From contig NC_013202.1 of NCBI RefSeq assembly GCF_000023965.1, positions 150,001 through 182,000 on the forward strand: 32,000 nucleotides of DNA, written 5' to 3'. Shown piece after piece: positions 5,706 to 27,644 of the stretch. Numbering within the stretch: position 1 is the stretch's first letter; the number at the start of each line of letters is the position of its first letter. The translations under genes were made by a program, and so were the position numbers. The notes below the pieces were generated by a model. The model was not told the origin of the DNA. It saw nothing but the letters and a program-made list of their open reading frames with translations, and searched no databases. The DNA comes from Halomicrobium mukohataei DSM 12286 (GTDB lineage: Archaea; Halobacteriota; Halobacteria; Halobacteriales; Haloarculaceae).

Positions 5706-6353
5706 ATGCCATATTACGGAGACATATCCGGTGATTTCCGGAACCTTCTCAACGAAGATTGTGAGGTGGTGGTTGTGGCTGTCGTTGGCGGTACTCATCA
5801 TGATTGTTACCGATGTCCGAAGAGAGCGGTTCGTAATGCACCGCAGATGGATGAGGCAAAATGGTATGATATGAAGACAGTTGAAAAGAGACGGTTCATG
5901 GAATGTTTAGGCGAAAATTCGCCACCACTAGAATTCGGATATGCAGTCTTTGAGTTAGACGACTTCACCAATCTGAGATCTCATTATAAGCTATTCCAAG
6001 ATGTTTCATTCCCTCCCATTTGGGATATCGCCATTCGAGGCATTGCTTATACTGAGATCCTATACGAGCTATCCGGAGACACCAATATCGAGTTCTATCC
6101 CGACCAGTTTAGATCGGGTGTACAGACAGACAAGCTTTGTGAAGTGATCGAAAACCGTCTAAAAAAGGCAGAGATCGAATGTGTATCGTCTGAACAAGTA
6201 GATGGTGTACAAGCGGCAGATTGCTTGGCCGGTGCTGTTGCAGAAGAACAGAAGGGCGGAACTCCCTGGCTAGAACACACTAATGCTGAGTCTCAAATAG
6301 CGGAATGTTCAAGTTGGACACTGATAGAACTGGAACGTCTTCTCGTCTCTTGA
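5706..6353 (+). CDS. Hypothetical protein in AT-rich islet (possibly DUF3800-like)
   Basis: 215-aa ORF with normal amino-acid composition in DNA much AT-richer than the flanks. C-terminal VQAADCLAGAV resembles the Q-x-AD-x-x-A motif I associate with DUF3800. Weak assignment. Confidence 0.55.
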   Translation: MPYYGDISGDFRNLLNEDCEVVVVAVVGGTHHDCYRCPKRAVRNAPQMDEAKWYDMKTVEKRRFMECLGENSPPLEFGYAVFELDDFTNLRSHYKLFQDVSFPPIWDIAIRGIAYTEILYELSGDTNIEFYPDQFRSGVQTDKLCEVIENRLKKAEIECVSSEQVDGVQAADCLAGAVAEEQKGGTPWLEHTNAESQIAECSSWTLIELERLLVS

Positions 6354-6615: not shown

Positions 6616-7335
<720 letters not shown>

Positions 7336-14390: not shown

Positions 14391-14555
14391 CAGGACGGCG
14401 GCGACCCGGCACTTGTCCCACGTTCAACTCAGGATTTCGGGGGTGTTCGTGCGAAAGCAGATCGCCCAGTAGCGGGCTCGAAATGCACGTAAACACAGCT
14501 TTCGCTGTGTGCCATAGTTCGGTTGAAAATGGGATCCGCCCTCCCCGATTTGAAC
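14391..14555. repeat. Proximal att-like direct repeat (tRNA-Tyr 3' end plus about 145 nt of trailer)
   Basis: Partner of 7046-7207. The trailer includes a perfect hairpin ACACAGC-GAAA-GCTGTGT (read on the tRNA strand) that is imperfect in the distal copy. Confidence 0.6.
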
Positions 14556-14608
14556 GGGGGGCAAGTCGATCTACAGTCGACTGCTCTACCAGTCTGAGCT
14601 AAGGGCGG
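14535..14608 (-). tRNA. tRNA-Tyr (anticodon GUA), no intron, CCA not encoded
   Basis: Hand-folded cloverleaf: acceptor CCGCCCT/AGGGCGG with the C1-G72 pair typical of archaeal tRNA-Tyr, D arm GCTC/GAGC, anticodon arm GTCGA-CTGTAGA-TCGAC, variable TTGCC, T arm CCCCG-TTCAAAT-CGGGG, discriminator A. Confidence 0.95.
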
Positions 14609-26048: not shown

Positions 26049-26702
26049 ATGAGCGAACTCGCGCGCGAGGCGGCGATCGATCGAGCCGTCGAGATCGTCG
26101 ACGCCGTCGCCGAGCAGACCATGCCGGTACCGGTACGAGAGGTCTGGGTGTACGGCGACGTGGCACTCGGACTCGATCCGATCGATCGACTCGACGTGTA
26201 TCTGACGAAGGACATCCTGCTGCGCGACGACGCAGACCGAGAGCCCGAGTTTCGCGAACGACTGGGCGTCGAGGGCGTCGGCAAGACCGTCCGGGCGGCG
26301 TGGGCCGACGAGTACCCCGAGTACGTCCGTGCGAACGCCTCGGGCCACGCCGCACCCGAGCAGTGCCTGGCCGCACACCTACTGGAGGCGTCCGAACCGA
26401 TCCACCTCGAAGTGTGCAACGCCTCGTTCGAGGACAACGTCACCCAGCGCCTGAAGGGTGCCCGCGCACGCGGAAACTACAAACAGCTGCTCGATCCCCG
26501 CGGCGTCTGTCTGTGGGCCGAGGGCCAGCGCAGCGACTCGGCCGTCCGCAAGCTCCGAGAGAGCGAACTCGCATTTCCCACGCTGTCTGGCGCACTCGAA
26601 ACGCTGGGTATGGACCCCGCGGAAGCCGACGAGGCCGCCGACGCCGTCCGAGAGTACCGGGAACGGCAGGACGGACGAACGGTGCGGGGCGACGTGGTCT
26701 GA
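26049..26702 (+). CDS. Conserved hypothetical protein (possibly a degenerate nucleotidyltransferase-like fold)
   Basis: 217-aa acidic ORF. VWVYGDVALGLDPIDRLDVYL loosely resembles the G[SD]-x(n)-D-x-D strand-turn of the minimal NTase fold. Confidence 0.6.
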   Translation: MSELAREAAIDRAVEIVDAVAEQTMPVPVREVWVYGDVALGLDPIDRLDVYLTKDILLRDDADREPEFRERLGVEGVGKTVRAAWADEYPEYVRANASGHAAPEQCLAAHLLEASEPIHLEVCNASFEDNVTQRLKGARARGNYKQLLDPRGVCLWAEGQRSDSAVRKLRESELAFPTLSGALETLGMDPAEADEAADAVREYRERQDGRTVRGDVV

Positions 26703-26795
26703 TACGGACACACGACCGAGAGATCCCAACAGCAGGTGGCGACAGCCACAGTCGGGCGGTGTTCAGATGAGAGAGAGTAGCGTCATTCAGGCACG

Positions 26796-27134
26796 GAAAG
26801 CCCTCGGCCCGCTAGCCCGATCTGTGGCGGATATTCTCTCTCCGGTCGAATAGTGCCGCCGCAGATCGGGCTACCGAGCCTCGCCCTTCCATCCGCCAGG
26901 ATTCGGCTGCCTCACAGTCTGAACCCTGGCGGATGAAAGGGCGAGCGGCGTCCGCGGCGCTTGCGCCGCGGGCTCGGAAGAGCGTGCTCTTCCGGCGCTC
27001 GATCCCTCCCGGGCGACGGTGAGCCGAGCGGAGCGAAGCGAACGTCGGGAGAGCTTGCTCTCCCGGAACAAGCACGCGAACGTAGTGAGCGCGCGCAGCG
27101 AGCCCCGGAGCGGTCGAGCGACGCGAGGGCTTTC
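26796..27134. repeat. Dense array of perfect palindromes and long hairpins enclosed by long-range pairing (candidate structured RNA or REP/BIME-like element)
   Basis: Outer 11-bp pairing 26796-806/27124-134. 18-bp hairpin 26813-30/26856-73. 21-bp hairpin 26880-900/26925-45. Three 9+2+9 perfect palindromes at 26952-71, 26975-94 and 27046-65. Inner pairing 26996-27002/27114-20. Confidence 0.45.
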
Positions 27135-27227
27135 GGTGTCTGCAACTCAGCAAGCGCGGTCGCTTCTCTGAACACCACCCACAGTCGACGCCACAGCTAT
27201 TTTGCGCCGGGCCGTGAACCGCCGACG

Positions 27228-27644
27228 ATGAGTCAGTCCCTCCACCTCGCGATCCGAACCGTCCACGTCCTCGCGATGGCGCTGCTGGTCGGCGGCGCGG
27301 CCGGGCTCTGGGCCGCGGCCCGACGGCGCGTCGACGACCTCCACGTGCTGGCGAAACGCTACGAGTGGCTCTTCTGGGCCGCGCTGGGCGTGCTGGTCCT
27401 CACGGGCGTCGGCAATCTCGGTGCGCTCGGTGCGCCCGGCCCCGGCACTCGCTGGGGGCAGACGCTGCTCGCGAAGCTCGTGGTCGTCGCTCTGTTCGTC
27501 CTCGGCTCGGCCGTCCGAACGCTGGCCCTCACCCGGACCGACCGCTCGACGCCACTCGCCGCCTGGAGTCGGCGGGCGTACGGGCTGACGACGGTGACAC
27601 TGCTCGCGCTCGTCGTCCTGGCGGAGGTGCTGGCCCATGGCTGA
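27228..27644 (+). CDS. CopD-like four-helix membrane protein
   Basis: Start at MSQSLHLAIRTVHVLAMALLVGG (ATG 27228). The upstream part of the track ORF lies in the palindrome array. Four TM helices with an H-x-x-A-x-x-L-x-x-GG pattern, as in the CopD family. Confidence 0.65.
   Translation: MSQSLHLAIRTVHVLAMALLVGGAAGLWAAARRRVDDLHVLAKRYEWLFWAALGVLVLTGVGNLGALGAPGPGTRWGQTLLAKLVVVALFVLGSAVRTLALTRTDRSTPLAAWSRRAYGLTTVTLLALVVLAEVLAHG

Follow-up and report, generated by a model that had tools for sequence, protein, structure and literature searches.

The spacer between two genes of Halomicrobium mukohataei DSM 12286 was examined within a stretch of 32,000 nucleotides (NC_013202.1, positions 150,001 to 182,000 of the forward strand; hereafter the window, to which all coordinates refer unless another locus is named) and is very probably occupied by a miniature inverted-repeat transposable element (MITE). 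Upstream of this spacer lies a gene for a DUF7095 protein (26049-26702, stop at 26702; Pfam DUF7095, E = 1e-113) and downstream a CopD-like gene (ATG at 27228), with 525 nt between the DUF7095 stop and the CopD start. As stated in an earlier note on this DNA, the gap was found to lack a credible open reading frame (ORF), since the frames present merely span palindromes and no Pfam-supported gene was detected in the 525 nt. The self-complementary features described in that note were also recovered (plus strand), including: (i) an 11-bp closing helix of GAAAGCCCTCG and CGAGGGCTTTC (26796-806/27124-134), which according to a repeat scan of the window runs on to 26788-26806/27124-27142, forming a helix, P1, with the 5′ arm CAGGCACG-GAAAGCCCTCG (26788-26806) and the 3′ arm CGAGGGCTTTC-GGTGTCTG (27124-27142); (ii) a hairpin, H1 (26807-26879), with a stem at 26813-30/26856-73, an asymmetric inner part GGATATTCTC...GAATAGTGCC, and a T.G wobble; (iii) a hairpin, H2 (26880-26945), with a 21-bp stem of CTCGCCCTTCCATCCGCCAGG and CCTGGCGGATGAAAGGGCGAG (26880-900/26925-45) and a 24-nt loop; and (iv) an expanded arm, H3 (26946-27123), whose stem at ~26996-27014/27102-27120 takes in an inner helix noted near 26996/27114 and has the conserved center AAGCACGCG...GCGCGCAG, and which carries three perfect 20-nt palindromes of 9+2+9 design (26952-71, 26975-94, and 27046-65). 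The pentamer-like run noted at 27021-45 was not borne out, as no tandem array was found by Tandem Repeats Finder (TRF). When folded as RNA, the region reached -231 kcal/mol compared with -170.5 ± 6 kcal/mol in dinucleotide-preserving shuffles (z = -10, both strands); thus, the pairing exceeds what is expected of the same composition, and the self-complementarity is far above chance on either strand.

The structure was found to extend beyond 26796 and 27134, the bounds first given to it, into an outer layer that had gone unseen. A 13-nt tip, GGCGGTGTTCAGA (26755-26767, plus strand; the 'A' end, with its subterminal part to 26787), faces its complement TCTGAACACCACC (27167-27179; GGTGGTGTTCAGA on the minus strand; the 'B' end, with its subterminal part from 27143), and the exact octamer CACAGTCG abuts both tips, at 26747-26754 on the left and 27180-27187 on the right. 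A terminal inverted repeat (TIR) with a flanking direct repeat, here a target-site duplication (TSD) of 8 bp flush with the tips, is the signature of a transposon insertion. The unit between the duplications (26755-27179, plus strand) is 425 bp long.

Insertion at the DUF7095-CopD spacer

Orthologous spacers were compared among related genomes. Both GCA_009217585.1 (CP045142.1) and an assembly of the reads of run SRR017872 encode an identical DUF7095 protein, and its cluster at 90% identity comprised proteins of H. mukohataei, Halomicrobium sp. IBSBa, and H. katesii. The DUF7095-CopD spacer of H. katesii DSM 19301 measures 92 nt, lacks the element, and contains the octamer once; when 26755-27179 and one CACAGTCG were removed from the window, the remainder was identical to the H. 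katesii spacer at 121/121 positions. This empty site was confirmed by an independent read assembly, which gave the same sequence. More distant Halomicrobium genomes and metagenome contigs had spacers of 110-112 nt, also without the element, that align with the right flank of the window as far as the duplicated octamer, and, besides H. katesii, the orthologous spacer was empty in five further genomes or contigs of Halomicrobium. Thus, the 425-bp unit is a precise, lineage-specific insertion, which this comparison of sequences assigns to the H. mukohataei lineage, at a time when it had already diverged from that of H. katesii DSM 19301.

The insertion point is 52 nt past the DUF7095 stop codon and 48 nt ahead of the CopD start codon. 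A TATA-like sequence, CTATTTTG (27197-27204), is located 9 nt downstream of the insertion and ~28 nt before the CopD ATG, and the CopD core promoter is probably intact but severed from upstream sequence. The isogenic H. katesii empty site allows the effect of the insertion on CopD to be compared directly. This setting between co-directional genes, 48 nt before the CopD start and with the TATA-like sequence preserved, could also suggest that the stretch belongs to the native regulation of the locus, acting for instance as a terminator, attenuator, or riboswitch; however, that reading is refuted by the empty sites, is further contradicted by the presence of the element at dozens of unrelated loci, and retains next to no probability.

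Other repeats were observed at this and a similar location. In two metagenome relatives whose DUF7095 is 82% identical (L044 and L045, 3655-3880), the orthologous spacer is 226 nt and holds different short GC-rich hairpins with GTGT-type linkers between them (e.g., GTCCGGGCGACCAGCCCGGAC and CTGCCTGCGCGACCAGCGCAGGCAG), which may be another small repeat family using the DUF7095-CopD spacer. On a metagenome contig (L081, 4288-4707), a unit closed by P1 of the kind found inside the window element was detected 41 nt from a DUF7095 homologue, on the 5′ side of that gene, and near a TrmB-like gene, which is also the case in the window, whether by coincidence or as a preferred neighborhood.

IS6-type ends and copies of the element

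A scan of viral contigs with GGYRGTGTTCAGATAAG identified a 697-bp unit (L056, 2944-3640) with both tips and a TSD of GGTTTGAC. Its single ORF encodes a protein of 211 aa that scored 199 bits on the NCBIfam model transpos_IS6 (cutoff 125) and matched Pfam DDE_Tnp_IS240, with homologues that are widespread in haloarchaea. Relatives of 697 bp were found in Halomicrobium urmianum (L059, TSD GATTCGAA) and GCA_009789175.1 (L060, TSD GTCCTTGA), and ISH29 on Halobacterium pNRC200 (L061, TSD GATAGGCC) is of the same 697-bp type. These four insertion sequences (ISs) share 8-bp TSDs and tips of GGCGGTGTTCAGATAAG / GGTAGTGTTCAGAT(A/T)AGC, GGC(G/A)GTGTTCAGATAAG lying ahead of the transposase gene and GGTAGTGTTCAGAT(A/T)AGC at the far end. 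The left tip of the window element, GGCGGTGTTCAGA, is the same as the transposase-proximal tip of L056, L059, and L060 and one base from that of ISH29, while its right tip, GGTGGTGTTCAGA, differs at one position from GGTAGTGTTCAGA, the transposase-distal tip in these IS6 elements. The left/right contrast of the 697-bp ISs is likewise found between the 'A' end (GGCGG...) and the 'B' end (GGT(A/G)G...) of the MITE, with the likeness ending after 13-17 nt. The hallmarks of the IS6 family are GG tips, a cTGTt motif, and 8-bp repeats (PMC7986276), and the window element has G1G2 and T6G7T8T9 at both of its tips in addition to the 8-bp repeat.

The element was found to be repeated, as the earlier note had thought worth checking. 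In the SRR017872 assembly, the same left junction is followed by a switch to a shorter variant of ~170 bp with point differences and a different right flank adjoined by a TrkA-domain gene, which indicates that the element is present in at least two copies in that genome. A scan with CAGRCACSGAAAGCCCTCG of one genome per species detected 16 loci in H. katesii, plus two Halobacteriales metagenome-assembled genomes (MAGs), along with ~19 single matches in unrelated bacteria compared with ~17 estimated by chance. By BLAST and tip searches, the copies in H. katesii span 74-532 bp, all with GGYRGTGTTCAGA at their bounds. Besides the window copy, perfect duplications of 8-9 bp were present at L006, L018, and L027. 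When the flanking octamers of 31 distinct copies with two IS6-type tips were compared, they matched at 8/8 positions in 5 copies, 7/8 in 6, and 6/8 in 3; that is, 14/31 reached at least 6/8, a level expected by chance in ~0.4% of copies by our own estimate. BLASTN of the whole element and of its left end against a plasmid collection returned nothing, even at E = 10. In viral contigs the interior was essentially absent, with the H2 arm matching one 4-kb contig and a P1 16-mer giving single matches only, which were taken as chance.

Overall, the TIR, the TSD, the empty site, the multicopy family, and the matching IS6 element with its transposase make it highly probable that 26755-27179 is a non-coding, non-autonomous MITE of the IS6 family (ISH29 group). 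An ISH29-type IS6 transposase acting in trans would recognize the two tips of ~13-17 nt; these would be joined to a target site opened by staggered cuts 8 bp apart, whose repair would duplicate CACAGTCG. The long-range 'closing' helices would then be the nested inverted repeats of the interior and of the MITE ends.

Copies were compared and found to differ by whole modules, and deletions at short repeats were identified in L024 and L035. A solo tip in L037 (1550-1562) adjoins a 444-bp flank with a visible ORF; an IS beside this tip was considered and set aside, as on a reading of the sequence, with no domain search, the ORF opens with a lipoprotein-like signal instead. Several smaller elements were also observed in or near the copies. 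In H. katesii, an 80-nt palindromic element, TAGTAACAATTGAAATGG..., is found inside two copies (L019, 5960-6040; L016, 6940-7025), where it sits in CTAG at the base of H1 with a TA duplication, and is an IS630-style MITE nested in an IS6-type MITE. A 100-nt near-palindrome in the window (TACTGCCGGCTGTAAG...CTTACAGCCGGCAGTA; 2435-2540), flanked by TAA and TGA, has a family member inside the right end of H. katesii L019 (~6215-6290) flanked by TCA, and is likely a further very small MITE, one that duplicates 3 bp of TNA type. L018, L033, L025, and L032 have an insert of ~50 nt within H2 that carries the 9+2+9 palindrome CAGGAGAGC-AC-GCTCTCCTG and is bounded by a CGCCAGG direct repeat, which suggests that GAGAGC-NN-GCTCTC mini-hairpins were themselves added as small units. 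In L125, L127, L109, L147, L111, and L170, a 60-nt module (GCACCGAAAGACTCGCTTCGCTCGACTTTCGA...TTCACTNCGTTCNCGAGACCACC) with its own hairpin was found in place of the IS6-type end on one side of the interior.

The four-hairpin core and its shells

The 340-nt array of palindromes reported in the earlier note is the interior of the MITE and one copy of a widespread four-hairpin module, hereafter the core (P1, H1, H2, and H3). At least 120 loci were identified when metagenomes were scanned with the H2 arm CTGGYGGATGAAAGGGCGAG, and H2 was almost always within a P1-closed unit. In all, 81 P1-closed cores of genomes and hypersaline metagenomes were extracted, and the order H1-H2(-H3) was observed in 61 of the ~70 that were oriented by the asymmetric H1 loop. 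An alignment of 27 canonical cores (231-257 nt, 273 columns) was used for covariation analysis, to which all counts out of 27 refer. RNAalifold predicted P1 (15 bp), H1, H2, and H3 to abut without linkers as a four-way junction. Compensatory double changes were found in 25 of the 74 pairs; paired cells made up 97.4% of the total compared with 89.4% in shuffles, and double-changed cells numbered 147 compared with 43.5 ± 5.6 in shuffles and at most 26 with slid partners. None of 500 shuffles matched any of the observed measures. Thus, covariation among homologous cores, a check proposed with the original description, strongly supports the nested-helix structure, with the same compensatory signal being yielded by DNA palindromes as by structured RNA.

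The helices differ in how they vary. P1 was retained in 27/27 cores, its outer 4 bp showing compensatory changes, and the outer stem of H1 is almost hypervariable yet paired, each pair being altered on both sides in 6-16 of the 27 sequences. In the inner part of H1, the T.G wobble was kept in 22/27 and the asymmetric bulged segment displayed U-A to C-G compensation. The stems of H3 differ wholesale around the conserved center, with a shorter, covarying H3 in the canonical cores. The core of the window is a long variant of 339 nt, with ~50 extra nt in H3 and two of the mini-palindromes between H2 and H3, and additions of this type were also found in H. katesii L024 and L006. The H2 loop occurs in two reverse-complement forms among cores in which H1 and H3 are fixed, and with respect to the ends the core was seen in all of the arrangements A/B, B/A, A/A, and B/B.

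A large structured RNA had been one of the two natures proposed for the array, and the nested helices on which that proposal was founded are backed by the covariation in the 27 cores. If the MITE carried the core as cargo in the form of a functional structured RNA, each tip would supply an archaeal TATA box in its A/T-rich part (TTCAGATAAG or TTTAGTTAAG) and transcription would start ~26 nt downstream, at the first base of the extended P1, to give an RNA of 230-340 nt. A spacing of ~26 nt is usual between an archaeal TATA box and the start site. Consistent with this RNA are the covariation far above both controls, the U.G wobble in 22/27 cores, the bulged inner H1 with its U-A to C-G compensation, the conservation of the core while its surroundings vary, and a tip-to-P1 distance that is fixed in ~40/66 cores (at 45 nt for one tip type and at 38-42 nt for the other, GGTCGTGTTTAGTTAAG); in addition, two of the mini-palindromes when read on the plus strand give CUUG-type loops closed by G-C. 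However, the promoter is an argument from spacing, and Rfam 15, searched at gathering and permissive thresholds with the window and a canonical metagenome copy, gave only sub-threshold miRNA-hairpin matches in the region, with a tRNA-Tyr elsewhere as the one match in the window to reach threshold. Among 1998 pair cells, G-U was found in 54 and A-C in 23; 22 of the G-U cells belong to the single wobble column, leaving 32, which barely exceeds 23, and both G-U and A-C are as rare as other mismatches. Assignment of a strand by G-U versus A-C was rejected, being not significant without the conserved wobble column, and the conflict of strand evidence pointed out earlier for the window is real and holds across the family. 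Most of the pair changes exchange one Watson-Crick pair for a different one, and C-G to G-C swaps are numerous. This near strand-symmetric pattern, together with a core that takes both orientations relative to the A/B ends and an H2 loop that is flipped in some copies, fits a constraint on two strands or at the DNA level at least as well as a single RNA, and we consider functional RNA cargo unlikely.

The same symmetry of the mismatch spectrum would also be in keeping with an interior that has no function, that is, nested palindromic junk whose arms are kept complementary by quasipalindrome template switching, arm-to-arm conversion, and inversion, and whose conservation comes from recent common descent and from recombination that moves cores between shells. 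The 2-nt centers of the perfect 20-nt palindromes are unable to form RNA loops, the H2 loop and the whole core are found inverted relative to the ends, other small palindromic MITEs are nested in L019 and L016, deletions have occurred at short repeats (L024 and L035), and no gene partner recurs beside the cores. Nonetheless, the bulged G residues and the T.G wobble are conserved asymmetries that should vanish under arm-to-arm correction, the near-invariant blocks of the core stand against a poorly conserved shell between tip and P1, and the H1-H2-H3 order is fixed in 61/~70 oriented cores; a functionless interior is thus possible but somewhat doubtful. The rest of the weight, beyond RNA cargo and no function, goes to some cis-acting structural role of the core. 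The core may be retained for the sake of a fold that is important in cis on either strand, for example as a stable bidirectional RNA or as cruciform DNA that would make insertions tolerable or aid recombination, while the mini-palindromes and part of the compensation may stem from template switching, arm-to-arm conversion, and loop inversion.

The conserved core was found in differing shells. Two variants of the IS6-type tip were identified, both with 8-bp duplications (e.g., L123 with 8/8 and L101 with 7/8). Of the 13 cores without IS6 tips, 10 are bounded by CTAG on both sides at 45-55 nt from P1, with short, dissimilar ends of the GCAGA and GGA(A/G) types. CTAG with a TA duplication is the classic target of IS630, and an IS5/IS701-type YTAR duplication of 4 bp would fit the CTAG-bounded shells equally well. 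L154, L124, and L164 are one orthologous site at which the core of L164 is reversed; a flip of the core in situ was set aside for this site, as the shells differ so much that independent hits on the same CTAG are possible. The conserved core in differing shells is the basis for regarding it as a structured passenger in interchangeable vehicles, and we tentatively suggest that the core (P1+H1+H2+H3, ~230-340 nt) may be a functional nucleic-acid module under its own selection, as RNA or cruciform DNA, carried in the shells of MITEs that depend on at least two unrelated types of transposase (IS6 with an 8-bp TSD and a CTAG-targeting type).

The genes around the cores were also examined. Clustering of the ORFs within 2.5 kb of the 81 cores gave no real recurrent family, only wrong-frame low-complexity ORFs. 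Among 43 cores that could be classified, none is inside a long ORF, and the neighbors are co-directional in 23, divergent in 14, and convergent in 6; a role as terminator was thus rejected, with no convergent enrichment (6/43) by crude gene calling. The recurrence of no TnpA, TnpB, RAYT, or other gene beside the cores bears on the second nature proposed in the earlier note, that of DNA-level palindromes. This proposal held to the extent that the element is repeated mobile DNA. It had been likened to REP/BIME sequences mobilized by RAYT (IS200/IS605-type Y1) transposases, to which a remnant of an IS605-type element in the form of a palindrome-associated transposable element (PATE) or omega-RNA may be added; the element is indeed repetitive, palindromic, and intergenic, and IS605-type elements and PATEs abound in haloarchaea (PMC3119063). 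However, the window copy has a TIR and an 8-bp TSD, which are absent from Y1-mobilized elements by the definitions in PMC3119063, and its tips match IS6 elements; an origin of either kind is therefore most improbable.

Several points weigh against the assignment of the window element to the IS6-family MITEs. Neither the 32-kb window nor the H. katesii loci examined were found to contain an IS6 transposase. We take CP001688 to be the H. mukohataei DSM 12286 chromosome. For a putative IS6 partner in H. mukohataei, the evidence is from the literature, in which ISHmu2 and ISHmu9 appear under that accession with the ISfinder host code Hmu (PMC6807381). The invariance of H2 and P1 was partly imposed by how the cores were collected, through the scan pattern and the extraction rule. 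A strongly conserved, covarying interior is not predicted by a plain MITE model, and the same interior occurs in shells with other tips (the GGTCGTGTTTAG type) or CTAG bounds. Approximately half of the copies are without a recognizable TSD. IS6 elements move mainly by a replicative cointegrate, which recombination then resolves, and the flanking repeats are redistributed when the event is intramolecular (PMC7986276); such intramolecular events, or recombination between copies, may explain the missing TSDs. In H. katesii, the octamer GTCGGCAG is divided between the left of L035 (4415-4422) and the right of L026 (793-800), as if one original target duplication had been split by recombination or intramolecular transposition between copies.

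Elsewhere in the window, a 157-nt direct repeat of ~79% identity was observed (7051-7207 and 14399-14555), with the second copy overlapping the 3′ end of the tRNA-Tyr gene (14535-14608, minus strand). The pair looks like att-type repeats bracketing an integrated element of 7.3 kb, and nine ORFs between and around the repeats had no Pfam match. Three further pairs of direct repeats, of 75-147 nt and 82-88% identity (5171-5317/11165-11311, 11879-11953/13205-13279, and 12253-12367/13261-13375), are in and beside the same tRNA-linked region.

Comparison with known systems

For annotation, a striking structured intergenic region is resolved as a recent transposon insertion. MITEs of the IS6 family are rare in the curated record, with two in ISfinder as of 2019-2020 (PMC6807381, PMC7986276), while the family of the window element is abundant in Halomicrobium-like genomes and hypersaline metagenomes. 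The covarying four-way-junction interior, conserved while the transposon ends change, goes beyond a routine MITE and, if the core is functional, would be a case of archaeal MITEs disseminating a structured passenger.

The nearest relatives are of the ISH29/ISH14 group, a haloarchaeal clade of IS6. The window element agrees with them over 13-17 nt of each end and reproduces the contrast between GGCGG on the left and GGTAG on the right; further points in common are the GG tips, a TGTT at positions 6-9, and target duplications of 8 bp (PMC7986276, PMC6807381). The two differ in that the IS is 697 bp with a 211-aa DDE transposase and the window element is 425 bp and non-coding, with the tips alone in common. 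The two MITEs counted for IS6 (PMC7986276), named MITEHarch3 and MITEBth2 (PMC6807381) and given as 227 and 336 bp, respectively, likewise have IS6 ends without a transposase, and MITEHarch3 has the host code 'Harch' as do the ISHarch IS6 elements. By description, which is the level at which they were compared with the window element, no conserved structured interior is reported for either (PMC6807381, PMC7986276). No named Halomicrobium MITE was found in the library of papers that was searched.

The MITEs, small mobile repeats (SMRs), and PATEs of Haloquadratum walsbyi are also small non-coding mobile repeats of a haloarchaeon; these transposase-free elements far outnumber full transposons, are inserted in one another, and in some cases have prominent inverted repeats (PMC3119063). 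Nesting of small mobile elements is thus common to H. walsbyi and the Halomicrobium copies. The SMRs differ from the window element in having no target duplication and inverted terminal repeats (ITRs) unrelated to any transposon, and the PATEs in having neither ITRs nor a target duplication but subterminal palindromes; a core in different shells is not described for the H. walsbyi elements (PMC3119063). By the Haloquadratum definitions, an element with an IS-related ITR and a TSD that is too short for a transposase is a MITE (PMC3119063), as is the case here. Likeness to IS630/Tc1-mariner-type MITEs was found in the CTAG-bounded family members and the element nested in L019, not in the window copy. 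The bacterial REP/BIME, ERIC, and Correia-type repeats are abundant intergenic sequences that fold into stable hairpins and can affect transcripts, with REP/BIME being RAYT-associated and without TIR and TSD. Compared with these, the window element is archaeal, is bounded by IS6 ends, and is folded as a four-way junction rather than a single hairpin.

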